From contig CAZSIX010000009.1 of the NCBI GenBank assembly GCA_964607145.1, positions 467-64,466 on the forward strand: a stretch of 64,000 nt of DNA. Direction: 5' to 3'. The number at the start of each line of letters is the position of its first letter. Positions within the stretch are counted from its first letter, which is position 1. A program made the position numbers and the translations under genes. Origin of the DNA: an uncultured Planctomycetota bacterium. GTDB taxonomy: Bacteria; Planctomycetota; JAJSAM01; JAKLKS01. The notes under the pieces were generated by a model that made no database searches, was not told the origin of the DNA, and worked only from the letters and a program-made list of their open reading frames with translations. Positions 37,124 to 52,672 of this stretch are shown here, piece by piece.

Positions 37124-40100
37124 CTAGCGGCTGCCGAAGCTCCCGTACAGCGACGACTGGTCCGTCGGGTCGCTGATGCGCGCCCGGACGATGATGATGA
37201 GGTTCTTGAATTCGCGCTCGTCGACGCGGCGCGTGAAGAAGAAGGACACGATGGGGATCTTCGAGAGCAGCGGGGTCTCGAGCTTCAGGTAGGCCTCGTT
37301 GATGTTCTTCAGGCCGCCCATGAGGAGGGTCCCGTTGTTGGGGACCCGGACCGTCGTCTGCGCCTTCTGGATGTTGATCTCGGGGAGTTGCAGGGTGACC
37401 GGGGTCGTGAACGCGCCCAGGGACGTGGTGAACGGCTGCATGGGGCGCTGGAGCGTGGCGATGGTGGGCTGGAGCTGCAGCGTCACGTACCGCCGGTCGT
37501 TGCTGACCGTCGGGCGCACGTCCAGCGCCATGCCGTCCTGGATGATGGAGACGATGGGGTCGGCGATGAACGCCGTCTGCGCGACCTCGACGTCGAAGTC
37601 CTGCACGAAGGCGAGCTGGTTCAGCAGGGTGATGTTGGCGCGCTGCGTGTTGTAGACGGTGAGGTTGGGGGACTGGAGGACGCGGGCCTCCTGCTTCTTC
37701 TCCACCGCCTGCCAGATGAGGCTGAGCTGCGCGTCGTCGAGCAGCGTCCACTGGAGGACGGCGCCGCCGACGCTGGTGAGCGTGCCCACGGGACCGGAGT
37801 CCTCGATGTGCTCGGTCCGGGCGCGGTAGTCGCCGTCGGAGTTGTCGTTGAAGAACGCGCCGGAGGAGGGCTTGCCGGAGGCGTTGACGAAGCCGATGCC
37901 GCCGTTGTCGAAGCCCACGGAGGCCTTGTCGTCGAGGCCGTTGGTGACGTCGTCCAGGACGGAGGTGAGGCCGGTCTGACCGCCGAGGCCGCGAAGGCTG
38001 ACGCCGACGTCGCGCAGGAAGCCGTCCGTGACGGACAGGAACCGGGTCTCGATGTTCACGACGATGCCGGAGAACTTCCGGAGGTCGTTCAGGAAGCGGT
38101 CGACGGCCTCCTGCAGGGCGGGCTCGGCGACCACCAGGAGGTTGGACTCGCCCTGGCCGTCGACCTTGTTGACGTCACCCCAGACGTCGGGGCCGTCGCC
38201 CACGTGGTCGCGGATGAGGGCCACCAGGTCCTCCACGCCGCCGTACTGCTGCTTGCCCTCCTCGACCTTGCCGAAGGCGGGGGCGTTCTCGTCCTGCTCC
38301 GCACCCGCGGGCTTCAGGATGAGGTTGGGGGCGACGAAGTCGTTGATCTTCATGGTGAGGTCGCCCACGGGGTGGATCTTGACCACGGGGGCCTCGCGCG
38401 CCAGTTCCGGCTTGGTGATGAGGACGAAGTTGCCGCGGACGCGGTAGGTGAGCCCCGCGACGTTGCGCAGCAGGACCGCCAGCGCGTCGCCCAGGGGGAC
38501 GTCGGAGAGCTTGATGGAGGGCAGGGGCTGGGCATCGGCGTCGCCGCGCACCTGCTCGTCGACGAGGATGTTGATCCCGTGGCGGGCGGAGAGGAACTGG
38601 ACCGCCTGGCTGAGCGTCTGGCCGTCGAAGGTGAAGCCGGTCTTCTCCTGGGCGAGCCGGTTCCGGAGGGCCGCCGAGTCGGGCGAGTCCTCCGCGCCAC
38701 CGGTGATCTGGCCCAGGTTCTTCCTGAGCCGCGTGATGCGGTCCCAGTGCTCGGCGGAGGGCGGGTTGACGAGCCCGCTCCACGGGATCATGGCGTCCTG
38801 CATGTCCATGCGCCAGGCGTGGAAGCGCTCCTTCTCCAGCTTGCGGGTGGCCTCCTTCGTCTGGCCGTGGCGGGACCGCTGCGCGGCGACCATGAGGTCC
38901 TTCGCGCGGGAGTTCGTGGGCTCCATGTCGAGGGCCTGGCGAGCCAGTCGCTCCGCCCCGTCGAAGTCGTCCCGGTCGAAGGCGGCCAGGGCGTCGGTGA
39001 AGATGGCCTGCCACTTCTCCCGCTCGGCGCGGAGGCGCGCCAGCTCCTGCGCCTTGACCTGCGTGTAGGCCTCTTCGGCCTGGCGGCGCCGGGACTCCTC
39101 GGCGGAGCGCTCCCGGGCGGTGCGCGCGTCGGCGAGACGCGCCTCGGCGTCCGTGCGGAGGCGGCCCCAGGAGATCCCGTAGGGGTCGGCCTGCATGATG
39201 GCGAGGGACTGCTCGAAGGAGGCGATGGCGCCCTCGTGGTCGCCGGCGGAGGTGCGGGACTTGCCCTGGTCGTACAGGGCCTTGGCCTTGGCCTGGGACA
39301 TCTCCATCTTCATCTGGCGCTCCGCCACGAGGCGTCCGGCGGTCTCGCCGATCTCGCCGGTCCGCTCGCCCAGGGCGGCGCGGGCGCGCTGCAGGAGGTC
39401 GCGGGCGGCGGGGTTGTCACCCTGCTGGTCGAGGGCCTTCTGGGCCCACTGCTTGGCATCGTCGAACTGGAGCGCGGCGAAGGCCTGCTCGCCCATGCCC
39501 ACGTACCGCTCCGCCAGGAACCGCGCCTTCTCCACGGCGAGGCGCTTCTCCGCGGAGAGGGCCTCGAGGGTCTTCTTCGCCTCGTCCTGCTTCACCTGGT
39601 CGGGGCTCTTGACCATGGGGGCCGGGCGGGTGGGCTCGACGGGCTTGGGGGCCTCGACGGGCTTGGGGGCTTCGACGGGCTTGGGGGCTTCGACGGGCTT
39701 GGGGGCTTCGACGGGCTTGGGAGCCTCGACGGGCTTGGGGGCCTCGACGGGCTTGGGGGCCTCGACGGGCTTGGGGGCCTCGACGGGCTTGGGAGCCTCG
39801 ACGGGCTTCTTGACCTCCACGGGCTTGGGGGCCTCGACGGGCTTCTTGCCGTCGTCGGGCCGAACGACGGGGGTGGGGGCCGGCGGCTTGGGAGCCGGGG
39901 GCGGGGGGTCGATGCTGACGGGAGGCTTGGGGGGCGGCGCCGGCTCGTCGGGGGCGGGCGCCGGCGCGGGAGCCGGGGCGTCGGGCTTCTTCGGCTCCTC
40001 CTTGGGAGGCGATGCCTTGGCGACCTCGACGGGCTTCTTGGCTTCGCCGGAGGGGGCCGGGGCCTTGTCGGCCGCCGGGGCGGGAGTCTTCCCGGGCTCG

Positions 40101-40273
40101 CCGGGCTTCGCCGGCGACGGGTCCCCCTTCGCCGTCATCGGCGCGGAGGCCTTGCCCGGCGCCTCGGGACGCTTCGGCTCCGAGGAGGAGCAGCCCTTCG
40201 AGACCACGGCGGCCACGATGACGGCGCCGAGCGTGGCGAACCCGACGATGCGGGTGCGGCGGGGATCAAGCAT
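37124..40273 (-). CDS. Giant secretin (GspD/PilQ superfamily) with Pro-rich linker and TPR-like helical region, 1049 aa
   Basis: C-terminal secretin motifs (VNIETRF, SPNLTVYNTQRA, LDVRPTVSNDRRYV, TTVRVPNNGTLLMGG, PLLSKIPIVSFFF, NLIIIVRARI). Start ATG 40273 follows AAGGAGG. Confidence 0.9.
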   Translation of the reverse strand: MLDPRRTRIVGFATLGAVIVAAVVSKGCSSSEPKRPEAPGKASAPMTAKGDPSPAKPGEPGKTPAPAADKAPAPSGEAKKPVEVAKASPPKEEPKKPDAPAPAPAPAPDEPAPPPKPPVSIDPPPPAPKPPAPTPVVRPDDGKKPVEAPKPVEVKKPVEAPKPVEAPKPVEAPKPVEAPKPVEAPKPVEAPKPVEAPKPVEAPKPVEAPKPVEPTRPAPMVKSPDQVKQDEAKKTLEALSAEKRLAVEKARFLAERYVGMGEQAFAALQFDDAKQWAQKALDQQGDNPAARDLLQRARAALGERTGEIGETAGRLVAERQMKMEMSQAKAKALYDQGKSRTSAGDHEGAIASFEQSLAIMQADPYGISWGRLRTDAEARLADARTARERSAEESRRRQAEEAYTQVKAQELARLRAEREKWQAIFTDALAAFDRDDFDGAERLARQALDMEPTNSRAKDLMVAAQRSRHGQTKEATRKLEKERFHAWRMDMQDAMIPWSGLVNPPSAEHWDRITRLRKNLGQITGGAEDSPDSAALRNRLAQEKTGFTFDGQTLSQAVQFLSARHGINILVDEQVRGDADAQPLPSIKLSDVPLGDALAVLLRNVAGLTYRVRGNFVLITKPELAREAPVVKIHPVGDLTMKINDFVAPNLILKPAGAEQDENAPAFGKVEEGKQQYGGVEDLVALIRDHVGDGPDVWGDVNKVDGQGESNLLVVAEPALQEAVDRFLNDLRKFSGIVVNIETRFLSVTDGFLRDVGVSLRGLGGQTGLTSVLDDVTNGLDDKASVGFDNGGIGFVNASGKPSSGAFFNDNSDGDYRARTEHIEDSGPVGTLTSVGGAVLQWTLLDDAQLSLIWQAVEKKQEARVLQSPNLTVYNTQRANITLLNQLAFVQDFDVEVAQTAFIADPIVSIIQDGMALDVRPTVSNDRRYVTLQLQPTIATLQRPMQPFTTSLGAFTTPVTLQLPEINIQKAQTTVRVPNNGTLLMGGLKNINEAYLKLETPLLSKIPIVSFFFTRRVDEREFKNLIIIVRARISDPTDQSSLYGSFGSR
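39636..39845 (-). repeat. 18-bp tandem repeat, about 12 units, encoding (KPVEAP)n
   Basis: Plus-strand unit TCGACGGGCTTGGGGGCC. Most variation is synonymous; one unit reads KPVEVK. Confidence 0.95.
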
Positions 40274-40380
40274 CGGCTCCTGCCCTCCTTCGTTCGCGCC
40301 CGGAGGCGCGTGGTGCCCCCTGCCCAAGGGGGAAGTCCTCACGAACCGGGGAATGCCCAGGGTCCAGTGTCGAGGCCCGG

Positions 40381-40410
40381 ATTCTACAGAGCGCCGGATC
40401 GGAGGGTCAA
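40381..40410 (-). promoter_or_regulatory. Putative sigma70 promoter of the secretin gene, TTGACC-N18-TAGAAT
   Basis: Near-consensus hexamers on the minus strand, about 110 nt upstream of the start. Confidence 0.65.
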
Positions 40411-40481
40411 CGAGTTTCGGGAGCGGAGATCGGGAATGGTGACAGAGGGATGACCTCTGGACCCCGTCGGGGCGGGGGGAA

Positions 40482-42401
40482 TCAACGGATGAGACCGCGG
40501 ATCTCCGCGATGTGGCGGTCGTCGGCGGGGCCCCGCGCCCGCTTCGTCGCCTCCTGCAGCGCCGCCTCCGCGGCGGCGCGCGGCAGGGGGAGGAGGAGCC
40601 CGTCGGGGCCGACCCCGCCCGCGCGCACGTGGGCCAGCGCGATCCAGCAGTAGAAGGAGGCGCCCCCGTCGATGCCCTGCTCCAGGGCGAGGCGGGCGAC
40701 GTCCAGCATCTCCGCGTGCTGGCCGGCTCCCTCCGCGGCCTGCATCATGAGGGAGACCGTGGCGGCGTCCCGGTAGACGGCGCCGGCCTTCTGGAACTGG
40801 AAGAAGGCCTCCGACCAGACTCCGCGGGACCCGGTCCCCGTCATCTTCGCCTGGTGGGCGAGGGTGCGCCCGATCCAGAAGGGCACGGCGGGGTTGGCGG
40901 GGTCGAGGCGCCCCACGGCCTCCAGTCCGTCCCGGGCCTCCCGCAGCATGGGGAAGGCCACCGCCGCGACCTCCTCGCGCCGGGCCCGGGAGAAGAGCGC
41001 CAGCGCACGCTCGAAGGCGACCACCAGGGACGCCGAGGGGAGGGGGAGCGCCGCGGTGACCTCGTCGGGGGGGATCTCGATGCGGCTCGCCGGCGACAGG
41101 TAGGCGATGGTGCCGAGGCCGCCGTCGGCGGAGGGAGCGGGCGGGGCGGCGGCGTCGAGCAGCGGCTTCGACCGGAGGACCGTCCACGCCGTGGCCGCCG
41201 CGTCCCCTGCGCCCGCTCCCGCGGTGGAGGCGAGATCGCGGGTCTCCGTCGGGTCCGCGAGGACGTCGTAGACCTCCCGCCGCCCGCCGCCGAAGTCGAT
41301 GACGCGCGCGGCGCCCGCCCGGGCGGCGCAGCACTGGGCCCATCGGAAGGAGCGCCACGGGTACAGGGTCTCCGCGTACTGCACCGGGGAGGCGCCCTCG
41401 CCCCGCGCGTCCCCGGGGAGGGGGAGGAGGGCGGCGCCGTCCAGCGGAAGGGAGCCGGGCGACAGGCCCAGCAGGCGGAGCGCCGTGGGCATCACGTCCG
41501 TCAGGTCCACGGGGGTCTCGACCCGCGTTCCCGCGGGGACCCGCGACGGGTATCGGACCGCCAGCGGCACGCGCACGGTGCTGCGGTACAGGAAGTACCC
41601 GTGGGTCGACTCGCCGTGCTCCCCGAGAGCCTCGCCGTGATCCGCCGTGGCGACGACCACCGTCCGATCCAGCGCCTCCTCGTCCCGAAGGGCCGCCAGC
41701 AACCGGCCCACCTGCGCGTCGGCGTACGCGACCTCCTCGTCGTACGCGGCGGGGGAGTCCGGCGGCGCCCCCGCTCCGCCGGGGGCGGCATAGGGGGAAT
41801 GGGGATCGAAGAGGTGGACCCAGAGGAAGAACGGGCGGCTCCGGTCCCGGGAGCGGAGGAACCCCAGCGCGCGACCCGCGGTGACCGCGCCGTCCACCTC
41901 CGCCAGTGCCAGTTCCCCGGGCTCGTTGATGTCGGGCGCCTCATACTGGTCGAACCCCGCGTCGAGGCCCCAGCGCGAGGAGAGGGGGGAGGCGGAGACG
42001 AACGCCGCCGTGGCGTACCCGGCTCCCCGGAGGTGCTCCGCCAGGGTGCGGAACCGCCGCGCCGCGGGGGGAGCGAGGGGACGGGGGGGATCGTTGAGCC
42101 GCAGGCCGTGGTGGGGGGGGACCAGCCCGGTCAGGAGGCTGGCGTGGGCGGGCAGCGTGACGGGGCAGGGCGTCGTCGCGTCGGCGAAGAGGGCCCCCTC
42201 GGCGGCGATGGAGTCCAGGTGGGGGGTCAGCCCTCCGCCGTGGCCGTAGCAGCCGAGCCGGTCGGCCCGCAGCGTGTCCACGGTGATGAGGAGGAGGGAC
42301 GGGCGGCCGGCGCTGACGCGCACGCGGAGAGCGAGGGCGACGGCGATGGCGCAGACCGCCACGGCGAGGGCGATGGAGCGACCGCTGGAGGACTTGCGCA
42401 T
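40482..42401 (-). CDS. Sulfatase/alkaline-phosphatase-superfamily hydrolase with C-terminal TPR-like helices, 639 aa
   Basis: LLITVDTLRAD, TLPAHASLLTG, FFLWVHLFDPHSPY, TADHGE and VRVPL. N-terminal signal or anchor. Confidence 0.88.
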   Translation of the reverse strand: MRKSSSGRSIALAVAVCAIAVALALRVRVSAGRPSLLLITVDTLRADRLGCYGHGGGLTPHLDSIAAEGALFADATTPCPVTLPAHASLLTGLVPPHHGLRLNDPPRPLAPPAARRFRTLAEHLRGAGYATAAFVSASPLSSRWGLDAGFDQYEAPDINEPGELALAEVDGAVTAGRALGFLRSRDRSRPFFLWVHLFDPHSPYAAPGGAGAPPDSPAAYDEEVAYADAQVGRLLAALRDEEALDRTVVVATADHGEALGEHGESTHGYFLYRSTVRVPLAVRYPSRVPAGTRVETPVDLTDVMPTALRLLGLSPGSLPLDGAALLPLPGDARGEGASPVQYAETLYPWRSFRWAQCCAARAGAARVIDFGGGRREVYDVLADPTETRDLASTAGAGAGDAAATAWTVLRSKPLLDAAAPPAPSADGGLGTIAYLSPASRIEIPPDEVTAALPLPSASLVVAFERALALFSRARREEVAAVAFPMLREARDGLEAVGRLDPANPAVPFWIGRTLAHQAKMTGTGSRGVWSEAFFQFQKAGAVYRDAATVSLMMQAAEGAGQHAEMLDVARLALEQGIDGGASFYCWIALAHVRAGGVGPDGLLLPLPRAAAEAALQEATKRARGPADDRHIAEIRGLIR

Positions 42402-42489
42402 GGCGCGGCGAGTCTACCCGCGTCCGTCGCGGGCCCCGGGCGATCTCGCGGCGTCGCCGCCCCCCGGGGCCCGCCGGTGCCGCCCTCCG

Positions 42490-42951
42490 CTACCGGGCCG
42501 GTGGCGACCCCCGGAAACGGACGTCCTCGATGCCGGCCCCCACGAACAGGTCCATGGCGTGGACGACATCGCCGTGCCGGACCGTCGGCGTCGCGTCGAT
42601 CTCGCCGATCACGCCCGAGTCGGCGGCCCGGATGGCGCGCAGCCGGGAGGCGACGCGATCCCATGCGGCGCCCCCCTCGGCGATGGCGCCCATGGGGGTC
42701 CCTCCCAGCGAGATCCGGGTCTCGCCGCCCTCGACCCGGGCCAGCCGCAGTCGGGCGCGGGGGCGGACGTCGGGGGGCTGCACCCGTTCCGCGCTCCCCT
42801 CGTCCGGGAGCCGCGACTCGATCTTCATGTCGAGGGTGCGGAACTTCATGGAGCAGAGGAACACGATGATCAACTGGAACGTCACGTCGATCATGGGGGT
42901 CATGTTGAGGCGGGGACGGGCCTGCGCCGCTTCGTCCGCGGGACGACGCAC
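42490..42951 (-). CDS. ExbD/TolR-family protein (third copy; start approximate)
   Basis: NMTPMIDVTFQLIIVF with the conserved Asp, and EIDATPTVRHGDVVHAMD. Confidence 0.85.
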   Translation of the reverse strand: MRRPADEAAQARPRLNMTPMIDVTFQLIIVFLCSMKFRTLDMKIESRLPDEGSAERVQPPDVRPRARLRLARVEGGETRISLGGTPMGAIAEGGAAWDRVASRLRAIRAADSGVIGEIDATPTVRHGDVVHAMDLFVGAGIEDVRFRGSPPAR

Positions 42952-43047
42952 GGGGCACCTCCGCTGGCGGGGCGCTCCCGGGACCGGGCGCAGGAAGGGT
43001 ACCACGGGGCCGGCGCTGCGGCGGTCCCCGTGGGGCTACGCGGCGGG

Positions 43048-43085
43048 GCGGGAATCGAAACGGGGTCTCCCCGAGGGAGACCCCG
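43048..43085 (-). terminator. Intrinsic terminator after the exbB-exbD-exbD operon
   Basis: 11-bp stem CGGGGTCTCCC / GGGAGACCCCG, followed on the minus strand by TTTCGATTCCCGC. Confidence 0.7.
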
Positions 43086-43103
43086 CCGGTCCGTCTCCGC
43101 TTA

Positions 43104-43264
43104 GGGCCCTGGCCGAAATTACTGCGTCACACTGAGGCCGAGCGAGGAAGCCCAGGGCAAGGCGCACCGACGAAGGTGACCCGAATGAGGGTCACAGAGG
43201 AGGTGCAACGCGGCCATGGGCTTCCGGAGCCGGCCGGATGTAGCAGTAGTTTTGGTCAGGGTCC
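43104..43264. mobile_element. 161-bp MITE-like non-autonomous element (IS5/PIF-Harbinger-like signature)
   Basis: 22-bp terminal inverted repeats, 18/22 identical (GGGCCCTGGCCGAAATTACTGC vs GGACCCTGACCAAAACTACTGC). TTA direct repeats at 43101-43103 and 43265-43267. Reconstructed empty site CCGC-TTA-GCGG. Confidence 0.72.
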
Positions 43265-43771
43265 TTAGCGGGGCGGCGCGGCCCCGAACTGGCCCGTCTC
43301 GTTGAGGGGAGTCCCCTTGAAGACCACGTTCTGCATCTTCGCGGCGAGGAAGGAGTCCAGCGCCTTCATGACGTGGCCGTGGGGGACGTCGGGCTGGGCG
43401 TCGATCTCCCCCTTGATGTTGGGGTCCTTCTGGTGGAGGTCGGAGATGCGCGCCGCCAAGGTCTTCCAGATGGTCTCGCCGGTGGCCGTGCTGCCGAGGC
43501 GGTTGTCGAGGACGATGACCTGCGTGTCCTTGGCGTTCTTGTCCCACTTGAGGCGCACGACGAGTTTCGTCTCCACCTCGGAGGTCGGGTTCGCCGCGGA
43601 GAGGCCGACGTCCTTGGGGAGGAAGGCCTCGATCTTCATGTCCAGGGTGCGGAACTTCATGGAGCAGAGGAACACGATGATCAACTGGAACGTCACGTCG
43701 ATCATCGGCGTCATGTTCACCGTGGTCCGCGCGGCCTTGGCGGGGTCGTCGAACTCCTTCTTCTTGGCCAT
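43265..43771 (-). CDS. ExbD/TolR-family protein (second copy), 168 aa
   Basis: NMTPMIDVTFQLIIVF and EIDAQPDVPHGHVMKALD. Confidence 0.92.
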   Translation of the reverse strand: MAKKKEFDDPAKAARTTVNMTPMIDVTFQLIIVFLCSMKFRTLDMKIEAFLPKDVGLSAANPTSEVETKLVVRLKWDKNAKDTQVIVLDNRLGSTATGETIWKTLAARISDLHQKDPNIKGEIDAQPDVPHGHVMKALDSFLAAKMQNVVFKGTPLNETGQFGAAPPR

Positions 43772-43783
43772 GGTTCCGTCCTC

Positions 43784-44275
43784 TCAGTTGCTGCCCGACT
43801 TGCCGGCCTTGTTGGGGTCTTCCGTGGCGAACTGCAACTTGTAGATCTTGATGTTCGGGTCCGCGCAGACCTGCATCACCCACTGTACGTCCTGCCACCG
43901 GGCGTCCTTGTCGGCGCGGATGAGCACGAACAGTTCCGAGGCGTTGGGGGGCTCCGGCTCCTTGTACTTCAGCGCCAGGGGGGTGATGAACTGGGTGAAG
44001 CCGCGGAGGTCGTACTCCTTGCCCTTGACCTTGAGGCGGGGAGGCCCGCCGTTCTTCCCGGCGATGAGGTTCACGATGACGCGGTGCTGCTCCCCCTGCC
44101 CCTTGTCCTCCTGGGCGTTCGCGGCGGGGGGCAGCTTGAGTTCCTCGATCTCCTTGCGGCTGAGGTCATTGGCCAGCATGAGGAAGATGATCAACTGGAA
44201 GACGACGTCGATCATCGGCGTCATGTTCATCTCGAGATCGCTGGTGTCGTTCTCGACGGGCTGGTTGGCGGCCAT
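43784..44275 (-). CDS. ExbD/TolR-family protein (first copy), 163 aa
   Basis: NMTPMIDVVFQLIIFLM, LKLPPA and LIRADKDARWQDVQWVM. Confidence 0.93.
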   Translation of the reverse strand: MAANQPVENDTSDLEMNMTPMIDVVFQLIIFLMLANDLSRKEIEELKLPPAANAQEDKGQGEQHRVIVNLIAGKNGGPPRLKVKGKEYDLRGFTQFITPLALKYKEPEPPNASELFVLIRADKDARWQDVQWVMQVCADPNIKIYKLQFATEDPNKAGKSGSN

Positions 44276-44308
44276 GGGCGTCCTCCCGGGGGGCCGGGCT
44301 GGGTCCCC

Positions 44309-45034
44309 CTACTGCTTCTGCGGCCGGAACCGCTCCACGAGGTCGTCCGCCACGGCGGTCAGCTCGTTGACGATGCGGACCACCCTGTTGCGGAAGATGA
44401 AGAAGAACATCATGGCCGGGATGGCCACCACGAGGCCCATGAGGGTCGTGATGAGGGCCTGCTGGACGCCCTGGGCCAGGTCCTTCGGCGTGACGTTGGG
44501 GCCGAGACGCACGATCTCGGTGAAGGCGCCGACCATTCCCTGCACCGTGCCGTAGAGGCCCCACATGGGAGCCAGGTTCCCGATGAGGGCGAGGTAGGAG
44601 ATCTTCTGGTGGAGCTTGGTGGCCTCGATGGCGGCCTGCTCCGACATGACCTGCTTCATGGTGTCGAAGCCGGCGTTGAGCTTGGGCAGTCCGGCGGCGA
44701 GGATGTTGGTCAGGAAGTTCTGCTCGGACTCGCAGAGTTCGAGCGCCTCCTGGTACTCCTCCTCCTCGAACAGGGCCTCGATCTCGTCGACCACTTCCGG
44801 CGGGACGAGCTTCTCCCGCTTGATGTTCATGAAGTGTTCGATGATGAACGCGACCGCGGCGACGGAGTGGAGGATGATGATCCCGCCCACCCAGCCGCCC
44901 CACTTCAGGATGTTGCCGATGGTGACCTGCGCCTCGGGCGGGAGACCGCCCCCGTCCTGTGCGAACGCCGCCGTGGACGCCAGCAGCACGGCGGCTGCGC
45001 CGGACGCCCCGAGGACCCACTTGCGCTTGCTCAT
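44309..45034 (-). CDS. MotA/TolQ/ExbB proton-channel protein, 241 aa
   Basis: LALIGNLAPMWGLYGTVQGMVGAF and ALITTLMGLVVAIP. Signal-like N-terminus. Confidence 0.93.
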   Translation of the reverse strand: MSKRKWVLGASGAAAVLLASTAAFAQDGGGLPPEAQVTIGNILKWGGWVGGIIILHSVAAVAFIIEHFMNIKREKLVPPEVVDEIEALFEEEEYQEALELCESEQNFLTNILAAGLPKLNAGFDTMKQVMSEQAAIEATKLHQKISYLALIGNLAPMWGLYGTVQGMVGAFTEIVRLGPNVTPKDLAQGVQQALITTLMGLVVAIPAMMFFFIFRNRVVRIVNELTAVADDLVERFRPQKQ

Positions 45035-45107: not shown

Positions 45108-46265
45108 TCAACGTGCGCGGTTGGCCCAGTCCGACCACGGATAGAACTCGACCAGATCCTTGAGGGCGGCTTCACGCCCGGCCGCGTCGCCGAGCGCCTT
45201 GAGAGCCTCCGCCTTGTACCACAGCGCCCGCGCGACCTCGTCGGGAACAGCGAACCCGGTGACCTCGACCTCGATGAACGCGCGCAGCGCTTCCTTGTGT
45301 CTGCCCTGCTGCAGGAGGACGGCGCCGGTGCCGCAGCGGGCGGCGGCGACACCCGCCGGGGCGCCCCCGGTCTCCGACGCCAGCCGGTCGAACGTGGCCT
45401 GCGCCTCCGCGGCGCCGGCGCCGCCGGCCTTCTCCACGCGGGAAAAGGCCGCCCAGGCGCGCCGGACGAGGGCGTCCACGCGCAGCGCGTCCATGGCCTT
45501 CCGCTCCGGGGAACCCGCGGGGAGCGGGGCGGCCTCGCGCTGGCACAGGTCCGCCAGCGCCGAGTAGGTCTGCTCCGCGTCGCTGGAGTCGCCCTTCCGC
45601 TCGAGGAGGCGGCCGCGGGAGCGGCGCGCGGCGGCTTCCCAGAGGGGCCGCTTCGCGGCACGGGCCGCGGCGGCGAGGTCGTCCAGGGCCTTCAGCGCCT
45701 TGTCCGGCTGGCCCGCGCCGTACAGGGCCTCCGCCAGTCCCAGCAGCGCCACGTCGAGGACGGGGCTCTTGGGCTCCTCCTTGAGCGCGGCCTCGAACGA
45801 CTGGACCGCCTTCAGGTACTCGGCGGGGGCCGACTTGGACTGCGCGGCGATGCGCCGCTGGCAGTCCCCGATGTAGGCGTTCGCCCGGGCGCGGCACCAG
45901 GGTCGTGCCACGCCGTTGTCGCTGGCGGCGACGGCGCCGCGGAACTCCCCCTCCGCCTCGGCCCAGCGGCCCGCCTTCCACGCGTCGAGACCGCGGCGGA
46001 AGTACTCGGGAGTGTCCCCGTAGACGACGGCGGCCACCTCGGCGGCGGGCTTGGCCTGCGCCGCGCCGACCTTGGACTTCCACTCCACGGTCTCGTAGGT
46101 CTCCGTCAGGATCATGACTTCGGTCAGTCGCTTGCCCCCCACGGGCGTCACCTCGTCCTTGAACGTGTCCGCGGGGGGGGCGGCCCACGCGGGGGCCAGA
46201 AGAAGCGCGGGGATCAGGCCGGCCCGCAGGGTCGCGGAGGCGGCCCGGAGGAGGGGGGCGGTCAC
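45108..46265 (-). CDS. Exported TPR-repeat protein, 385 aa
   Basis: Signal peptide ending AWA, TPR-like helices (AVQSFEAAL, ALLGLAEALYGAG, ARALWYKAEAL) and a YP-W C-terminal cap. GTGA overlap with the upstream gene. Confidence 0.8.
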   Translation of the reverse strand: MTAPLLRAASATLRAGLIPALLLAPAWAAPPADTFKDEVTPVGGKRLTEVMILTETYETVEWKSKVGAAQAKPAAEVAAVVYGDTPEYFRRGLDAWKAGRWAEAEGEFRGAVAASDNGVARPWCRARANAYIGDCQRRIAAQSKSAPAEYLKAVQSFEAALKEEPKSPVLDVALLGLAEALYGAGQPDKALKALDDLAAAARAAKRPLWEAAARRSRGRLLERKGDSSDAEQTYSALADLCQREAAPLPAGSPERKAMDALRVDALVRRAWAAFSRVEKAGGAGAAEAQATFDRLASETGGAPAGVAAARCGTGAVLLQQGRHKEALRAFIEVEVTGFAVPDEVARALWYKAEALKALGDAAGREAALKDLVEFYPWSDWANRAR

Positions 46266-49200
46266 TCGCAGCCGTCCTTTCCGAGGCGCCGCAGCGCCGC
46301 ATCGGCCTCGTCCCGGACCTGTTCGAACTGCTTGCGGAGTCCGGGCTTCACCTTGTCCGCCTTGGTGACCTCGTCCAGCGTGGCCATGCTCTTGAAGAGG
46401 GCGCAGACCGTCCGGAGGGGGCCGTCCGCCTTCAGGGCGACGCCCAGCGTGCGGTAGATGCCCATGTGGTGGAGCCGCCACTCGAACCAGCGGCCGCTGT
46501 ACTTCGTCCCCTCGGGCTTCTTCTCCTCGTCCGACACGGGGGCCGACTCGATGAGGAGCTGGTACAGGTTCACGGCGGAGATGGCGCTCTCGATCTTGGT
46601 GGCGCGCGCCTCGTGGCACCGCGCCAGGCTGTACATGAGGTCTGGGGTGCGCTTCACCAGTTCGAAGGTCGCGTTGCGCACGTTGGGGGACATGGTGCTC
46701 GACTCCCCCAGCTTCGTGAGGGCGAGTCCGGCGGCGAGGGCCGTGATTCCGTCGGGCCCGGCGCCGTCGTACACGCGCATGAGGTCTTCCTTGTCCGGGT
46801 TGGCGGAGGCGACCACGCCCTCCGCGCGCGCCTTGAGCGGCGCGCCGGCGGGGAGGAGCGACGCCCGCGCCACGGCGGCGGCCAGGAACTTCTTCACCTC
46901 GCCCTGGTACACCGACGCCTCCGTGCCCGGGGGCGGCGCGCTGATCACCTTGAGGAACTCGCGGACGCTCGAGAGGTCCGTCTGCGGCTTCACGAACAGC
47001 CGCTCCAACTTCGGCAGGGCGTCCTCGTAGCGCTGCTGGTCGATGAGGATGTCCACGAGGTGGACGCGGACCGTCTCGGCCGCCTCCTTGTCCCCCGCGG
47101 CCTCGTGCTGCTTGAGAGCGATCTCGAACTCCGCGGAGGCGCGGTCGAGGCGCCCCGCCTCCTGGTTCATCTTGCCGACGTACACGTGCATCTCGGGCCC
47201 CGCCGCCTCGGCGGAGGCGATCCAGAAGTCGTACAGGTCCACGGCGCGGCCCAGCATCTCCTTGGCGACCTGCGGGTCCTGTTCCGCCGCCGCCGCCCGC
47301 TCGTTCACCAGGGCGTTGGCGACGCCGAGGCACGCGGAGGCGGTCCACGGGGAGTCGGGAGTGCCGTCCTTGAGCGCCAGGGCCTCCTTCTCGGCCTCGG
47401 CGAGGCGGCCCTTCAGTTCGAGCAGCGACCGCACGCGGAGGAAGCGGATCCGCGGCAGGGCGTTGTCGAGGCCGGCGCCGGCGAACCGGGTCTCGAAGTC
47501 CTTCAGCGCCTCGACGACGCGGTCGTGGCGACCGAGGTCGAAGCGGGCGTTGGCGAGCCAGAACGTCCCCCAGCCCTGCGGCTGGCGCTGCGGCGGCGGC
47601 GTGTTGGCGTCGTTGAAGTAGGAGGCCCACTTCGCGAGGAACCCTTCGATGTGCTTCGCGGCGTCCTCGGGCTTGCCCATGAGGACCAGGCACTCGCCGA
47701 TGCGGCTCTGCGCGGTCCTGTGCTGGGCCTCGCTCTCGGGGATGGCCTTGAGGAGCGCGATGGCCTCCTGGAACGCCGCCGCGGCCTCCTCCGCGCGTTC
47801 CTGGCGCTGGAGGGAGGCGGCCCTGTCCATGGCGGCGCGTGCCTCGATGTACTTGAGCCCGCCGCCGGCGACCCACGCCAGGGCGGGTTCGCGCGTGAGG
47901 AACTCCCGCGCCCTCTCCGCCTCCGCGATGATCTCCTTGTCCCTGGTCCGCTGGCCCAGGGCCTGGAGCGAGGAGTGCAGGCCCAGCGCCGCCCGTCGGA
48001 TGTCCTCGTCCTCGTCGGCGCGCTTCATGGCGAGGTACCGCTTGACGGCCTGGTCGGCGGCCACGTACGCCTCGCGGTAGCGGTCGAGCTGCATGTAGCA
48101 GTAGAAGATGCTGCTCCACGTCTTCGCGTGGTACTCGTCGAGGAGGCGCTTCTGCCGCGCCGGGTCGGGCTCCTCCTCGCAGGCGAGCAGCGTGCGCTGG
48201 AAGGCGCGGATGGCCCGCCCGTACTGCCGGGCGTCGCCGCTGCCCTCCCCGGCCTTGAAGAGGACGTCCGGGCTGAGGCGGATGTTCGCGTCCGGCGGGA
48301 TGGAGGCGATGACGTCGTTGAGCGCCTGCTTCGCGACGTAGCTGACGCCGCGGCCCCAGGAGGGGTCGGCCTGCCCCGCCGACTGCGTGATGGCGTTGAT
48401 CTCGCGGATGGCGGCCTCGTGCTGGCCCGTCCTCGCCAGCGCGCGCGCCTTCTCGACCAGCGCCTCGAGCCCGTAGCGTGTGGACCGCGTGCGCTGCGGC
48501 AGCGCCTTCTCGACGCGCTGCATGGTCTCCACGTACAGGCGGGGATAGGAGACGGAGTCGAGGCTTCCCACCTGGTTGCACAGCGCGCCGAACTCCCGGC
48601 ACGACTCGAACACCACGTTGGAGAGGGCGAGGATGGTCTTCGCCCCGGGGAGGTCCGCGGCGCCGATGGCGACGTCGAACCAGTCCTTCGCGTCCTTGAG
48701 GTCCGTCGCGTTCCAGGTCCCCTTGCCCTCGGCGCGACGGCCGAAGGAGCGGCCCAGCCACTGGGCCACGTAGTAGCCGACGATCTCGCCGTCGGTCTCC
48801 TCGAGGAAAGGCATCAGTTCGTCGTCGATGGTCTTCGTCAGCCCCGCCGTGCGCAGCGCGTCGCCCACGGGATGCAGGAGGGCGCGATCGTGCATGGCGA
48901 CGCAGAGGTAGTACCAGGCGACGTTCCGCAACTGGAACCGCAGCTCGTCGTCCGGGTCGCCGGCCCTGCCCTTCGTGTTCTCCCGGTCCCGGACGAGCTT
49001 CAGCAGCCGGATGGCCTCGTCGAACGCCCCCTCCGCCTCCTTCCGCACTTCCTCGGGGTTGGGGAGGTCGGCGATCTTCTTGTTCAGGTAGTAGCCGAAG
49101 TCCTTGAGGAGGTTGGCGCCGTTGAACTCGGCGTCGGCGCCGTGGGCGCCGCCGGGGAACGCCTTGAGGAAGGCCGCGTAGGCCTTCCGCGCCGCATCGA

Positions 49201-49504
49201 ACCGCTGGCGGACCTCGGCGGGATCGGACTTGTCGATGCCGGCGAGCGTGAGCGCGGCCCGCCGGAGCAGTTCGCAGCGCGCGAACTCCGCCGCCTCGCG
49301 CTGCTTCGCGGAGGGGTTCCGCGTGAGCATGTTGTCGATCTCGGCCTGCGCGAGTTCCGTGTACCCGCGGGCGGCGAGACGCAGCGCGAACTGGACGTCG
49401 TCCTCGTCGTCGCCGGCGCGGGCGTGCCCGGCGCACAGGGTCAGCGCGACGACGCCGACGGCCAGGCGCGCCCACGGGCGCAGGGTTCGCGCAGGAGCAA
49501 CCAT
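46262..49504 (-). CDS. Large exported TPR/alpha-solenoid protein, 1080 aa
   Basis: Signal peptide ending HARA, then DEDDVQFALRLAARGYTELA and continuous TPR-like helical repeats. GAGG RBS. Confidence 0.8.
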   Translation of the reverse strand: MVAPARTLRPWARLAVGVVALTLCAGHARAGDDEDDVQFALRLAARGYTELAQAEIDNMLTRNPSAKQREAAEFARCELLRRAALTLAGIDKSDPAEVRQRFDAARKAYAAFLKAFPGGAHGADAEFNGANLLKDFGYYLNKKIADLPNPEEVRKEAEGAFDEAIRLLKLVRDRENTKGRAGDPDDELRFQLRNVAWYYLCVAMHDRALLHPVGDALRTAGLTKTIDDELMPFLEETDGEIVGYYVAQWLGRSFGRRAEGKGTWNATDLKDAKDWFDVAIGAADLPGAKTILALSNVVFESCREFGALCNQVGSLDSVSYPRLYVETMQRVEKALPQRTRSTRYGLEALVEKARALARTGQHEAAIREINAITQSAGQADPSWGRGVSYVAKQALNDVIASIPPDANIRLSPDVLFKAGEGSGDARQYGRAIRAFQRTLLACEEEPDPARQKRLLDEYHAKTWSSIFYCYMQLDRYREAYVAADQAVKRYLAMKRADEDEDIRRAALGLHSSLQALGQRTRDKEIIAEAERAREFLTREPALAWVAGGGLKYIEARAAMDRAASLQRQERAEEAAAAFQEAIALLKAIPESEAQHRTAQSRIGECLVLMGKPEDAAKHIEGFLAKWASYFNDANTPPPQRQPQGWGTFWLANARFDLGRHDRVVEALKDFETRFAGAGLDNALPRIRFLRVRSLLELKGRLAEAEKEALALKDGTPDSPWTASACLGVANALVNERAAAAEQDPQVAKEMLGRAVDLYDFWIASAEAAGPEMHVYVGKMNQEAGRLDRASAEFEIALKQHEAAGDKEAAETVRVHLVDILIDQQRYEDALPKLERLFVKPQTDLSSVREFLKVISAPPPGTEASVYQGEVKKFLAAAVARASLLPAGAPLKARAEGVVASANPDKEDLMRVYDGAGPDGITALAAGLALTKLGESSTMSPNVRNATFELVKRTPDLMYSLARCHEARATKIESAISAVNLYQLLIESAPVSDEEKKPEGTKYSGRWFEWRLHHMGIYRTLGVALKADGPLRTVCALFKSMATLDEVTKADKVKPGLRKQFEQVRDEADAALRRLGKDGCE

Positions 49505-49623
49505 CCGGTACCTCGCGTGCGTGGGGGGGGTGGATGCACGTGCGGCCGCGGAACGGGGCGGCGGACCACAACGGGGCACCCCGTCCCGGCTGCCCACGGC
49601 CGGAACGACATCGATGGGGCGTG

Positions 49624-49651
49624 ATGATAGGTCTCCGGGGAGAGGGGGCAA
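49624..49651 (-). promoter_or_regulatory. Putative promoter of the TPR-TPR-exbB-exbD-exbD operon, TTGCCC-N16-TATCAT
   Basis: Hexamers lie in a local AT-rich patch of a roughly 300-nt intergenic gap. Confidence 0.45.
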
Positions 49652-49809
49652 TTTCTTTCGATCCCCGGACGCGTCCCGTGTGGCCTGCATGGGGAGTCTC
49701 CCGTGGGGAACGGGGCGGGACGCGACGACAGCGTACCACGATCCGGCGAATCGTGTCGGCGCCGGCGGGGTTCCCTCCCGCGCGCGCTGCCCCGCCTCCT
49801 CCGGACCGC

Positions 49810-50751
49810 TCAACGCGGGACCAGGGGTCCCGGCCCGGCGGCGCGGAGGATGCGCCTCTCCTCCGCGGGTCCTCGCAGCACGACCTCCGGCACTTCCACC
49901 GGGATCCCGGGCAGCAGGCGCTCCGTCGTCTCCATGGTCCCGTCGGCCCGCCGCAGGACGCGGCCGTCCGGCAGGAACCGCGGCACGGGTTCGATCCGCG
50001 GCTCCGTCACGCGGAGCGCCCGCACCGCCTCCAGCACGTACTCCGTCTGGAAGTCCACCGGCGTCCCCTGGTCGGCGACGGAGGAGAGTCCGCCGACGAC
50101 CTGCGTCTCGGACAGGTGGAACGGCGCCTCCACGGCCCGGCCGTCGTAGGCGCGCCGCAGGATCAGCAGGGCGCTGCGCGTCTCCATGTTGGCGCTCTCC
50201 GCCCGCAGGATCTCGACGGGAACGCGGAAGGGGATGGACACGCGCTCCTCCTCCGCCGCCGCCACCCCCAGCGGCGTGGCGGTGACGACCAGGGTGCCGG
50301 CCACCGCCGACACCGGTGTGCGGAGGACATCGGTGCCCGCGGGGACATCCAGTTCCAGCGTCCCCGGTCCACCCAGCCCGGAGACGCGCACGGTGGTCCC
50401 CCGGGAACCGGCGGCCGCGCTCCAGCGGGCCACGAGGCGACCCTCGGAAACGCTTCCGTCGAGACGCGCCACGCGCACCGGCGGCGCCGCCTTCGAGGGG
50501 AGAGGCCCCAGTCGCCGCTCCGCGAACGCCGGGGGCGCCGGGGCCGCGAGGAGCAGCGCCTCGGCGCGGCGGGCCCGGGCCAGCGCCGCTCCGGCACCCA
50601 CGCCGTCGGCGGTGACCGCTGCGGGCGGGGGTGGGGGAACCGCGTGCCGGGCGGAGGCGAGGTAGGCGGGGAGGAAGGATGCCGCCCCCACCAGCGCGGC
50701 CGCGGCCAGCGCCACGGCGTCGGCGCGACCGGCGGAACGGTGCCCCGTCAT
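49810..50751 (-). CDS. Hypothetical membrane-anchored protein with beta-rich periplasmic part, 313 aa
   Basis: N-terminal TM helix, Pro-rich linker and predicted beta strands. ATGA-coupled to the upstream gene. Confidence 0.6.
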   Translation of the reverse strand: MTGHRSAGRADAVALAAAALVGAASFLPAYLASARHAVPPPPPAAVTADGVGAGAALARARRAEALLLAAPAPPAFAERRLGPLPSKAAPPVRVARLDGSVSEGRLVARWSAAAGSRGTTVRVSGLGGPGTLELDVPAGTDVLRTPVSAVAGTLVVTATPLGVAAAEEERVSIPFRVPVEILRAESANMETRSALLILRRAYDGRAVEAPFHLSETQVVGGLSSVADQGTPVDFQTEYVLEAVRALRVTEPRIEPVPRFLPDGRVLRRADGTMETTERLLPGIPVEVPEVVLRGPAEERRILRAAGPGPLVPR

Positions 50752-51131
50752 GGAGCCCGCTCCAGGACGACCCGGCACCGGGCCCGCCCGGGGGAGTCCT
50801 CCAGGGCGTCCACCTCCAGCGAGAGGAGCGGCGCGCCGCTCTCCGCCACCCACCGGAGCACCTCCGGCACGGCGGACCACGGGACATCCCCCACCCAGCG
50901 ATCCGCACCGTCGGCCAGGAGCCCGGCGGGAGGCGTCGGAGAGGGGCCGGGGAGGAGGCCCTCCAGCGCGGCACACCGCGCGGGCACGGGATCCGGGGTC
51001 GCGGCGGGGAGGACGGCCGCGGGGTCGGCCGCCGGGGCCGCCGGCCCGAAGAGGGCCGCGGGCACCAGCGTCGCCCACGCGGCGACGCAGCCGACGACGG
51101 TGGCGGCGAACAGAAGCGCCCCGCGGGTCAT
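50748..51131 (-). CDS. GspM/PilO-like small membrane protein, 127 aa
   Basis: TM helix followed by VPWSAVPEVLRWVAESGAPLLSLEVDALEDSPGRARCRVVL, resembling the GspM periplasmic ferredoxin-like pattern. ATGA overlap. Confidence 0.55.
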   Translation of the reverse strand: MTRGALLFAATVVGCVAAWATLVPAALFGPAAPAADPAAVLPAATPDPVPARCAALEGLLPGPSPTPPAGLLADGADRWVGDVPWSAVPEVLRWVAESGAPLLSLEVDALEDSPGRARCRVVLERAP

Positions 51132-52672
51132 TTCCGATCCGCCGCGCCGGGGGGGGCGTCGGAGACGGTCCGGTGGAGCAGGGTGCGATCCCCCCCCGGC
51201 TCCGCCGTCCAGCCGCGGTCCGCCAGGGACGCCCAGACCCCGGCGGCGGGACCGGGCCCCACCCGGGGACCCCCCTCCCACCAGACGTCCAGCGCATGGC
51301 CACCGGCGATGCGGGTGACCCGCAGTGCCACCAGACCCGCTCCCGGTACGCGGCCGTCGGGGGCCGCCTCGTCCAGCGTCGCCAGGGCCCTTCGCAGGGA
51401 GGCCGCCCGCTCCACGGCGCCGGAGGCCCGGCCCAGCCGCTCCACGGCTCCGCGCCGCTCCGCCGTGGCCTCGCCGGTGACCGGCGAAGCGCCGGGGGGC
51501 CGACGGGCCCCGCCCACCTCCAGGGAGTAGAGGATGGACGCGGCGGTGCACGCCGCCAGCACCGCCGCCGCCAGGGGGTACAGGGTGCGCTCCCGGGGGG
51601 CGGGAAGGTCCTGCGGGAGGGTCCGGAACTCGAGGTCCCGCTGTCCCTCGTCGAGGGCCGCCGCGGCGGCCGCCAGGGGCGCCAGGAGGGACGGGAGAGC
51701 CGCCTGCAGGAGTTCCGGCCGGACGCGGGGGCCGGCCCGCACGCCCGCCGTGAGGGCGGGGGGCGGGCTGCCGGGGCACTGCGCGCACCGCACCAGCGCC
51801 GCCCGGAGGCCCGGTCGGGAGGCGGCGGGCCCCACCGGGAGGAACGTCTCCTCGCCGGTGCCCTTGACGAGGGAACGATGGTAGTCCATGGCGCGTCGGA
51901 CGTCCGCCGCGAAGGGAGCCAGCGCCGCGTCCAGCAGGGCCGCCGCGGGGTCCGCGGCGGTGGCCGGGTCGCGATCCAGCGCCGCCGCCGCGGAGGCCCC
52001 GGGGGCGCGCCTGGCGAGGTCCGCCTCCAGGTCCCGGCAACCCCACGGCAGGAGGTACTGCACGCTCTGCGCCCCGTCCACGGCGAGGAGCCGGGACCAG
52101 GTGCCCTCCATCTGGAGCAGGTACCCGCGGCGAGGGGCGACGCCCAGCCCCTCGGCGGCGTGGATCAGCGCCACGGGGACCAGGGAAATCCCGACCGCCG
52201 TCAGTCCCGCCTCGCGGAACGCCGCCTCCGTCCGCCCGAGGATCTCCCGGCGCGCGGCGGCGACGCGGAAATCGAGGGCACCGGCGTCCCCCAGCCGGCG
52301 CCAGCGCAGCTCCACTTCGCGCCCGTCGTAGGCCGTGAAGTCCTGGAGTTCCTGGGCCAGCTCCGCGTCCGGGAGGTCCGCGTCGTCGGCGGCGATGCGG
52401 AAGGTGCGGCACACGCCGCCGCGGGAGGGGAGCACGACCTGGAGCCCGTGATCCTGGAGGCGCCTCCGGCGGACCGCCGCCACGGCGATGGAGAGCGGAT
52501 CCTCGCCGGCGGCCACCGGGACCGTCCACCACTCAAGGACATCGAGGGGACCCTCGGGAGAGCGGCGGACGCGCACGGCCGTGATGGCCGTCTCGCCGAT
52601 CTCCAGGCCCCAGATGGGTGTGGGGTGCAACGGACCTCCGGGCGGACCTCCCTCCACGGACTTTCCCGACAC
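51128..52672 (-). CDS. PilM-like actin-fold protein with C-terminal TM/PilN-like extension (GspL-like fusion), 514 aa
   Basis: IWGLEIGETAITAVRV matches the PilM N-terminus. Also AGLTAVGISLVPVALIHA and DVRRAMDYHR. TM helix near residue 385. Confidence 0.7.
   Translation of the reverse strand: MSGKSVEGGPPGGPLHPTPIWGLEIGETAITAVRVRRSPEGPLDVLEWWTVPVAAGEDPLSIAVAAVRRRRLQDHGLQVVLPSRGGVCRTFRIAADDADLPDAELAQELQDFTAYDGREVELRWRRLGDAGALDFRVAAARREILGRTEAAFREAGLTAVGISLVPVALIHAAEGLGVAPRRGYLLQMEGTWSRLLAVDGAQSVQYLLPWGCRDLEADLARRAPGASAAAALDRDPATAADPAAALLDAALAPFAADVRRAMDYHRSLVKGTGEETFLPVGPAASRPGLRAALVRCAQCPGSPPPALTAGVRAGPRVRPELLQAALPSLLAPLAAAAAALDEGQRDLEFRTLPQDLPAPRERTLYPLAAAVLAACTAASILYSLEVGGARRPPGASPVTGEATAERRGAVERLGRASGAVERAASLRRALATLDEAAPDGRVPGAGLVALRVTRIAGGHALDVWWEGGPRVGPGPAAGVWASLADRGWTAEPGGDRTLLHRTVSDAPPGAADRK

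Follow-up and report, generated by a model that had tools for sequence, protein, structure and literature searches.

To our knowledge, every characterised secretin system (the type II (T2SS) and type III secretion systems, type IV pili (T4P), Tad and filamentous phage) is driven by cytoplasmic ATPases, and every characterised Exb/Tol-type motor acts through a TonB- or TolA-like transducer on beta-barrel or lipoprotein partners. Here we describe a locus of an uncultured Planctomycetota bacterium, at positions 37124-52672 of a 64-kb stretch of contig CAZSIX010000009.1 (64,000 nucleotides; hereafter the window), in which a secretin gene stands together with the genes of an ExbB/ExbD motor and of tetratricopeptide repeat (TPR) proteins. 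Judged by gene order and sequence comparison, the region is this organism's version of a block conserved across the phylum, in whose core the genes of two secretins, A and B, enclose those of two secreted TPR proteins, an ExbB/TolQ-type stator and its two to four ExbD/TolR paralogues. The block most likely encodes one envelope-spanning apparatus and may be a new kind of envelope-spanning machine; no earlier description of it was found in full-text literature searches.

The block resembles two familiar systems. The likeness to the type IVa pilus operon pilMNOPQ (hofMNOPQ in E. coli) lies in a PilM-fold protein, small bitopic proteins and a secretin, which come in that order in sister lineages; the secretin core (putative N0 and N domains and the secretin domain) aligns along the PilQ model, and in the pilus system the ATPases are typically encoded elsewhere. 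In contrast to that operon, one fused protein here combines PilM with PilN and often takes in the whole platform, the third platform protein is fibronectin type III (FnIII)-like with no PilP match, and the platform is missing from most loci. Unlike PilQ, the secretin appears to be lipid-anchored, carries its own TPR region and lacks AMIN domains, and there are two paralogous secretins with a proton-driven stator and two large TPR proteins between them. The likeness to the Ton and Tol-Pal systems consists of an ExbB/TolQ-family channel, ExbD/TolR proteins with a transmembrane aspartate and a faintly CpoB-like TPR protein, and would extend to the spending of inner-membrane proton-motive force (PMF) at the outer membrane. 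The block differs from these in having no TonB/TolA transducer, TonB-dependent receptor, TolB or Pal, in carrying two to four heterologous ExbD paralogues, and in that its outer-membrane partners would be secretins.

The nearest published arrangement is a "TPR, tolQ-like, tolR, tolR, vWA transducer" cluster of the Planctomycetes-Verrucomicrobia-Chlamydiae (PVC) group, reported from Planctomycetes and Verrucomicrobia with function unknown (vWA, von Willebrand factor A; Williams-Jones et al. 2025, PMC12204202). The TPR-tolQ-tolR-tolR motif is common to both. The PVC cluster ends in a transmembrane-tethered vWA protein with an SHLS/His motor-binding motif, whereas the block described here has no vWA gene and no such helix; instead, secretins, which are not mentioned in that report, flank the TPR-tolQ-tolR motif, and the ExbD genes are followed by an esterase or secretin B. 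Precedents for Tol/Exb-type or related PMF motors that drive large envelope machines are the Agl-Glt machinery of Myxococcus and GldLM of the type IX secretion system (T9SS) of Bacteroidota. The first of these had been invoked in the initial annotation of the region; the analogy holds for the functional pattern of one TolQ, several TolR and TPR proteins, and does not extend to homology, the Glt-specific parts being absent. The likeness to T9SS is one of a motor paired with an outer-membrane translocon. Both precedents use beta-barrel outer-membrane components, not secretins. The block has no Glt-, Gld- or Spr-specific protein, and a Pfam search of the window revealed neither the TonB-like domains of GltG/GltJ nor the barrel domains of GltA/B/H/K.

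The window has about 72% G+C, and its raw lists of open reading frames (ORFs) are consequently crowded with spurious frames; one coding frame per segment was chosen by analysis of third-position GC (GC3). This yielded an unbroken run of minus-strand genes from 54580 to 35741, which extends past 37124-52672 on both sides. All 11 genes of 37124-52672 lie on the minus strand, and GC3 analysis together with Pfam and NCBIfam scans gave the order K, J and I (three genes of a PilM-type platform), TPR-long (TPR1080), TPR-short (TPR385), ExbB, ExbD1, ExbD2, ExbD3, a sulfatase-family enzyme and a secretin. The order and common strand given in the initial annotation are thus borne out, as are the gene identities, with Pfam or fold evidence for the secretin, the sulfatase-family enzyme, the three ExbD proteins, ExbB, TPR385 and the PilM-fold protein. 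Its statement that the window encodes no pilin, PilB/GspE, PilC/GspF, TonB or TonB-dependent receptor also held: none was found in a Pfam scan of the block and 31 further GC3-supported ORFs (with TonB_C as the TonB domain), nor did a six-frame search of the 64-kb window detect a pilin N-terminal motif or a PilB-type Walker A motif. Start and stop codons overlap by 4 bp at the K-J, J-I and TPR-long/TPR-short junctions.

The secretin and the ExbBD-TPR genes, proposed in the initial annotation to form one system, are linked across Planctomycetota at 28-59% secretin identity, and not unlinked. When the block was sought in cultured model planctomycetes, scans with single proteins reached only close relatives among metagenome-assembled genomes (MAGs), and the names of family clusters led only to Planctomycetota MAGs. 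With secretin B as anchor, eight loci (L002 and L004-L010; loci are cited by number, prefixed L) at 38-59% secretin identity carry TPR-long, TPR-short, ExbB, two to four ExbD genes, the sulfatase-like enzyme, the secretin and a HAD-family hydrolase, and in the more distant of these loci a second secretin (A) lies just upstream of TPR-long. Anchoring on secretin A gave 206 relatives, 80 of which were fetched. The order that recurs in them is (DHH), a gene of the uracil-DNA glycosylase (UDG) superfamily, (platform), secretin A and about 5 kb of TPR genes, followed by ExbB, ExbD, ExbD, (ExbD), (esterase), secretin B and HAD. Of the 55 loci having at least 7 kb of sequence downstream of secretin A, 49 have ExbB there, and in 28 of 50 loci secretin A has ExbB as well as secretin B within 10 kb; 16 further loci have ExbB, with secretin B below the score threshold or outside the fetched flank. 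UDG precedes secretin A (or K) in every locus with enough flank (48/48), and HAD follows secretin B in most loci that reach so far. All 12 loci retrieved with ExbB as anchor carry the block. Because it recurs in dozens of distant genomes, the arrangement is, on this comparison, far more than chance would produce. Gene order kept at such depth is usually a mark of operons that encode physically interacting products.

The fuller form of the block, UDG, (PilM-type platform), secretin A, TPR-long, TPR-short, ExbB, two to four ExbD, (esterase), secretin B and HAD, with its two secretins, is probably ancestral. The PilM-PilN-type inner-membrane platform before secretin A and a probable threonine-type esterase before secretin B are additions of some lineages. 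In the window, the platform, both TPR proteins, the motor, the esterase and secretin B are retained. With only 306 bp between I and TPR1080, there is no secretin A at this locus, nor is there one in the corresponding place in the close relatives L026, L110, L111, L112 and L114. In MAG.395, a close relative, an A-type secretin stands alone among housekeeping genes on another contig (L074), where its neighbours give no functional hint. This lone copy points to secretin A having moved, not necessarily having been lost. The window is a derived form. The initial description of a system with a single secretin is therefore right as to the presence of secretin B and incomplete as to the block, whose fuller form has two paralogous secretins, A being gone from the window locus.

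The two secretins share their full-length architecture. In a neighbour-joining tree of 117 secretins, they form clean sister clades of 73 A sequences and of 42 B sequences plus that of the window; one more member of the B clade had been labelled A solely through its position in a partial locus (L012). The window secretin thus falls in the B clade, and the clean separation of the clades indicates that the pair is an old duplication, kept since before these lineages split. At E<=1e-30 the family, defined on the TPR and N-domain region, has 156 representative clusters, and at E<=1e-10 it has 657. It is easy to overlook, since several of these secretins are publicly named "hypothetical protein" or "tetratricopeptide repeat protein", in records that are all from Planctomycetota MAGs. 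Weak "secretin" matches in L013-L019 and L022-L025 were considered as possible canonical T2SS/T4P secretins; those examined (L013, L016 and L019) proved to be HEAT-repeat or uncharacterised proteins and were rejected. Next to the stand-alone B-like secretin of L012 (MAG SRP287453_co1_191) lies a gene for a DNA/RNA non-specific endonuclease (5262-6485; PF01223, 3e-45), a single case.

Secretin B of the window (37124-40273, minus strand; 1049 aa from the ATG) matches PF00263 at 2.7e-24, with 86 bits against a cut-off of 27.5 over residues 879-1056, and its matches among PDB sequences are f1 pIV, PilQ, GspD and RcpA. A lipoprotein-type signal with a conserved Cys is followed by a Pro-rich APKPVE linker and a TPR/helical region of about 300 aa (TPR_2, 28.2 bits); next come a putative N0 (STN)-like domain (STN weak, 16.9 bits against a cut-off of 28.4), putative N domains and the C-terminal secretin domain. 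The best NCBIfam matches are MshL and PilQ, both far under their cut-offs: PilQ (TIGR02515) aligns over residues 568-1056 with 74.6 bits against 284, and GspD (TIGR02517; N0-N3 and S domain) reaches 72.5 bits against 351. Neither AMIN nor S domains were found in Pfam and NCBIfam scans. The linker is encoded by an 18-bp tandem repeat (39635-39844, minus strand; 11.7 copies, 91% match) and is missing from most homologues, which have about 860-950 aa and align only from residue ~230-270 on; the repeat is lineage-specific low-complexity sequence, and its length may vary. The secretin A orthologue of MAG OFTM341 (L028, 7766-10867) has a Cys/Gly-repeat N-terminal linker of GCGCGD type, not a Pro-rich one.

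Most of the secretin homologues shown, A and B alike, carry a lipobox and Cys at the N-terminal helix, and for this reason the helix is read as a lipoprotein signal. A fusion of TonB and secretin, suggested by the hydrophobic helix and Pro-rich tract, was rejected on the same observation and because the tract is a lineage-specific repeat. Secretins A and B thus both look like lipoproteins, and in both the N-terminal part includes a TPR-like region of about 300 aa. Liposecretins are exemplified by HxcQ and BfpB, whose N-terminal lipid anchor makes HxcQ self-piloting, and TPR modules promote secretin assembly. Compared with known liposecretins and TPR pilotins (PilF/PilW/Tgl), the TPR region here lies within the secretin polypeptide.

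The motor comprises one stator subunit and three ExbD paralogues, all encoded on the minus strand. ExbB, of the ExbB/TolQ family (44309-45034; PF01618 (MotA_ExbB), 3.4e-27), begins at ATG 45034, which is preceded by a GGAGA ribosome-binding site, with GTG 45091 as a possible alternative, and is 43-76% identical over related blocks. Its NCBIfam matches are tolQ at 3.1e-22 (79 bits against a cut-off of 221) and exbB at 2.3e-13. ExbD1 (43784-44275; PF02472, 1.3e-16) is of the TolR/ExbD family, with tolR as its best NCBIfam match (33 bits against a cut-off of 127), and is followed by ExbD2 (43265-43771; PF02472, 1.8e-12) and ExbD3 (42490-43005; PF02472, 2.8e-13). ExbB and the ExbD proteins thus exceed the Pfam cut-offs (PF01618 and PF02472) and fall under the NCBIfam equivalog cut-offs. 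The transmembrane aspartate is retained in all ExbD paralogues, within TPMIDV in ExbD1.

Five related loci were included in the Pfam analysis of block genes, run directly or taken from precomputed matches. TonB_C, TolA, vWA, Pal, TolB and TonB-dependent receptor matches were absent from the window and from these five loci, and the TonB-type SHLS/His motif was not found in candidate transmembrane helices of the block. The related loci examined, like the window, also lacked pilin and pilus ATPase genes. A 90-nt patch that is 96.7% identical between ExbD2 and ExbD3 (blastn; 42817-42906 and 43628-43717) spans exactly the transmembrane helix (NMTPMIDVTFQLIIVFLCSMKFRTLDMKIE), the other parts of both genes having diverged. 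The patch looks like gene conversion of the segment that would insert in the ExbB pore.

Upstream of ExbB lie the genes of both TPR proteins, also on the minus strand. TPR-long (46262-49504; 1080 aa) is secreted, with a signal peptide whose probable cleavage site is ARA/GD. Several TPR Pfam models match it, every one below its curated cut-off, and it is probably an alpha-solenoid; positional orthologues of 950-1150 aa occur in all related loci. TPR-short (45108-46265) is a 385-aa periplasmic TPR protein with TPR_12, TPR_1 and TPR_2 over the Pfam cut-off and a weak CpoB/YbgF likeness (TIGR02795 tol_pal_ybgF, 8.8e-10; 39 bits against a cut-off of 90).

In the mechanism that we propose, an ExbB5:ExbD2-type inner-membrane motor would turn proton flow into mechanical work. 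Because the block encodes no TonB, TolA or vWA-type transducer, the force would pass from the periplasmic domains of ExbD through TPR-short and TPR-long to the TPR/N0 end of the secretin. There it would open, or help to assemble, the secretin gate, so that a macromolecule could cross the outer membrane by import or export. That the ExbB/ExbD motor works in this way, through ExbD and TPR proteins on the TPR/N0 end of a secretin whose channel it opens or assembles, is a reading for and against which we find the scales about level. A wider claim would make the block a machine of a new class, with a Tol/Exb-type proton motor that, via TPR proteins and not TonB, gates paired paralogous lipoprotein secretins to move macromolecules across the planctomycete outer membrane; this we regard as unlikely.

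Several observations weigh against this coupling. We infer it from gene order alone: of the hybrid of PMF motor, TPR proteins and secretin put forward in the initial annotation, the identities, the linkage and the lack of a TonB/TolA-type partner stand on observation, and the coupling on gene order. No force transducer was identified, and the genes of the window probably fall into three or more transcription units. Six of 55 loci have no ExbB between or after the secretins, and in L071, L076, L080, L086 and L100-102 secretin A is followed directly by B, with no TPR or motor genes; in L041 and L048 the motor is missing and the TPR and esterase genes are kept. Stand-alone copies occur of B-like secretins (L011 and L012) and of an A-type secretin (L074), the extra B-like copy of L011 sitting among unrelated genes that give no functional hint. 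A distant member, L124, lies in an operon of PilM_2, two further genes and a secretin, with no ExbBD. In lineages with a PilM-fold platform, the true driver may, by implication, be a fibre powered by ATPases. The strongest reservation is that UDG and HAD, which seem unrelated and border the block, are conserved as tightly as the motor inside, and synteny may for that reason overstate functional unity.

The main rival to a motor-driven secretin is that the secretins serve a T4P/T2SS-like machine whose ATPase, platform protein and pilins are encoded elsewhere, the ExbBD-TPR set being an accessory that does not power transport; it would assist in inserting, piloting or stabilising the secretin, or else meet a need of the pilus comparable to that for TonB3. 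Among what speaks for this rival is K (51128-52672, minus strand), in which a PilM-fold cytoplasmic domain is joined by one transmembrane helix to a small periplasmic domain of alpha/beta type; with the alternative start at 52630, K would have 500 aa. K has only 5 close homologues in a database of 5.8 billion proteins, and Pfam matched neither it nor J or I. A profile of 6 homologues matches PilM of T. thermophilus (2ych) at E 1.8e-5, and the NCBIfam pilM model matches K at 3.5e-7, under the cut-off. For an AlphaFold2 (AF2) model of K with a mean predicted local distance difference test score (pLDDT) of 61, the ten best Foldseek matches are all PilM, at E 8e-12 and weaker, ahead of FtsA. In this model the actin-like domain is followed by the transmembrane helix, a long helix and the small alpha/beta domain, the predicted layout of a PilM-PilN (GspL-like) fusion. 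One hallmark of T4P and T2SS, an actin-fold platform protein of PilM/GspL type, is thus present.

The other two platform proteins are J and I. J (50748-51131, minus strand) is a small bitopic protein with a transmembrane helix and about 100 aa in the periplasm; it is kept in close relatives, and a J profile found no match among PDB sequences. To call it PilO/GspM-like, by topology alone, is a guess; of two earlier assignments, that of K as PilM-like has gained profile and fold evidence and that of J as GspM-like fits in topology, with no Pfam or PDB sequence match. I (49810-50751, minus strand) is likewise bitopic, with a transmembrane helix, a helix and two FnIII/immunoglobulin-like beta-sandwich domains (AF2 model pLDDT 79; best Foldseek match tandem FnIII domains, E 7e-5). 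An I profile found nothing among PDB sequences, and I was rejected as a PilP or GspC candidate, the fold search yielding only generic FnIII tandems.

Gene order adds to the case for a pilus-like machine. In sister lineages (L039, L040, L046, L047 and L067), K, J and I are merged in a single ORF of 810-880 aa that immediately precedes secretin A, I corresponding to the C-terminal part of the fusion, and L124, with a PilM_2 gene, two genes and a secretin, has no ExbBD. The platform is an accessory, tied to secretin A in a pilMNOPQ-like arrangement, and it is this position that makes an ATPase-driven fibre encoded elsewhere a possibility. ATPases are usually encoded apart from pilMNOPQ operons, MshL and PilQ are the best NCBIfam matches of the secretin, and the TPR lipoproteins PilF, PilW and Tgl are known secretin pilotins. 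Many T4P genes occur in Planctomycetes (PMC7397252), and in R. baltica exbB and exbD were induced alongside pil genes (PMC2754498).

The distribution of the platform speaks against such a machine. By a K-family hidden Markov model, the platform was detected in 10 of the 80 fetched loci, or 13 when the look-up loci L026, L027 and L124 are added, and only about 13 of 67 loci leave enough space for it between UDG and secretin A; the motor and TPR genes, by contrast, occur in about 90%. The platform, earlier treated as part of the system, is present in the window and, across the phylum, detectable in only about a fifth of loci. There are, moreover, two paralogous secretins instead of one, the window secretin is far under the PilQ, GspD and MshL cut-offs with no AMIN or S domain, and a pilotin role needs no proton-driven stator with two to four ExbD paralogues. 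On balance we consider the T4P/T2SS-like machine somewhat unlikely, and the Tol-Pal and Ton readings that follow less likely still.

The TolQ-, TolR- and CpoB-like genes might instead be a planctomycete substitute for Tol-Pal, acting in outer-membrane tethering, lipid homeostasis or division, with the secretins as independent neighbours. The preference of ExbB for tolQ over exbB (3.1e-22 versus 2.3e-13), TolR as the best match of ExbD1 and the weak YbgF/CpoB match of TPR385 all lean this way, as do the equal conservation of the unrelated-looking UDG and HAD neighbours and the likelihood of separate promoters. However, every Tol match is far under its equivalog cut-off, and no TolA, TolB or Pal/OmpA_C gene was found in the window or in the related loci scanned with Pfam. 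That two secretin paralogues bracket the motor on the same strand in most loci, at phylum-level divergence, is also hard to explain without a shared function, and we judge a Tol-Pal substitute to be quite improbable. An ordinary Ton energiser, with TonB and TonB-dependent receptors encoded elsewhere, is very improbable: ExbB and ExbD do belong to the Pfam families in question and Ton genes can be split between loci in many bacteria, but the equivalog cut-offs for ExbB and ExbD are missed by a wide margin, the 64-kb window and the five related loci contain neither TonB_C nor a TonB-dependent receptor, and this reading would leave unexplained why two TPR proteins and two secretins constantly accompany the motor.

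Between ExbD3 and secretin B lies the gene first described as sulfatase-like (40482-42401, minus strand), an alkaline-phosphatase-superfamily enzyme with a helical C-terminal extension of about 250 aa. The family assignment stands (PF00884, 3e-43; PF01663, 2.3e-14), and the active-site motif does not bear out a sulfatase: aligned to the choline-sulfatase 7oz8, the enzyme has T-L-P-A-H in place of (C/S)-x-P-x-R. Orthologues occur in L002-L010, L028-L070 and L105, and TxPxH is present in 23 of them by pattern match and, by eye, in that of L105. A threonine cannot be converted to formylglycine, and a true sulfatase acting on sulfated glycans was rejected, since TxPxH replaces the formylglycine-sulfatase (S1) motif. 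TLPAH and the following "SLLTGLxPxxHG" resemble the nucleophile segment of NPP-type phosphodiesterases, and the Pfam Phosphodiest match is 2.3e-14 for the window enzyme and 4.4e-19 for one orthologue. The enzyme is probably a threonine-type phospho(di)esterase or transferase. Because its N-terminal signal-anchor helix abuts the catalytic domain, it is predicted to be anchored in the inner membrane and to work at the outer face of that membrane. A role as transmembrane-tethered force transducer was rejected, as no linker separates the helix from the catalytic domain and the His/SHLS motif is lacking.

The genes at the edges of the block continue the minus-strand run. The conserved upstream neighbour is the UDG-superfamily gene (52709-53506; PF03167, 2.4e-37), preceded by a likewise conserved DHH gene (53510-54580; DHH/DHHA1), and the conserved neighbour downstream of secretin B is the HAD-family hydrolase (36241-36978; PF00702, 2.9e-18), after which a receiver-domain gene was found by Pfam scan. 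Sigma-70-like promoter matches on the minus strand lie upstream of the secretin (40410-40381), before TPR-long (49651-49624) and before HAD (37016-36987), three sites against 0.3 expected, each within an intergenic gap, and a terminator-like hairpin (43073-43061, minus strand) lies just upstream of ExbD3. These signals, already remarked on in the initial annotation, make several transcription units plausible.

The remainder of the window is housekeeping in character, with EF-G, Lon, Mla, two Opp-type ABC sets, ComEC and an LptD-like protein; Rfam and tRNA scans of the window found nothing. The ComEC/Rec2-type DNA-uptake channel gene (19400-21577, minus strand; Competence and metallo-beta-lactamase domains), about 16 kb from the secretin, adjoins a gene for a large protein with a weak LptD match (21785-24298). 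The segments 3875-8917 (plus strand) and 8944-10983 (minus strand) hold three consecutive HlyD-type membrane-fusion genes and, next to these, an FHA-GAF-adenylate/guanylate cyclase gene; of the three, one is joined to tandem GAF domains and another to a region resembling peptidase M50. At 58415-62260 (plus strand), downstream of glycosyltransferase family 2 (GT2) and asparagine-synthase genes, a 1281-aa protein combines a PMT-type (dolichyl-phosphate-mannose) glycosyltransferase domain with a long TPR array. G+C rises to 0.77-0.80 at 20001-22000 and 50001-54000, against about 0.71-0.72 in the surroundings, and AT skew is positive (0.12-0.28) at the same positions.

The block is a new arrangement of known families, and would be a new machine class only if the coupling of motor and secretins were demonstrated. 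Two secretins around a transducer-less motor, kept phylum-wide, suggest a coupling not described before. In planctomycetes, periplasmic uptake of 10-40 kDa dextran and of green fluorescent protein (GFP) is sensitive to carbonyl cyanide m-chlorophenylhydrazone (CCCP) and proceeds "through unclear mechanisms" (Boedeker et al. 2017, PMC5394234); the same authors speculated on crateriform structures that connect the two membranes. CCCP-sensitive uptake is what a secretin gate driven by protons would be expected to show, and on the wider claim above the block could be the missing mechanism of dextran and GFP uptake, or a component of the crateriform structures. The block is in this sense a concrete candidate for answering how planctomycetes take up macromolecules.

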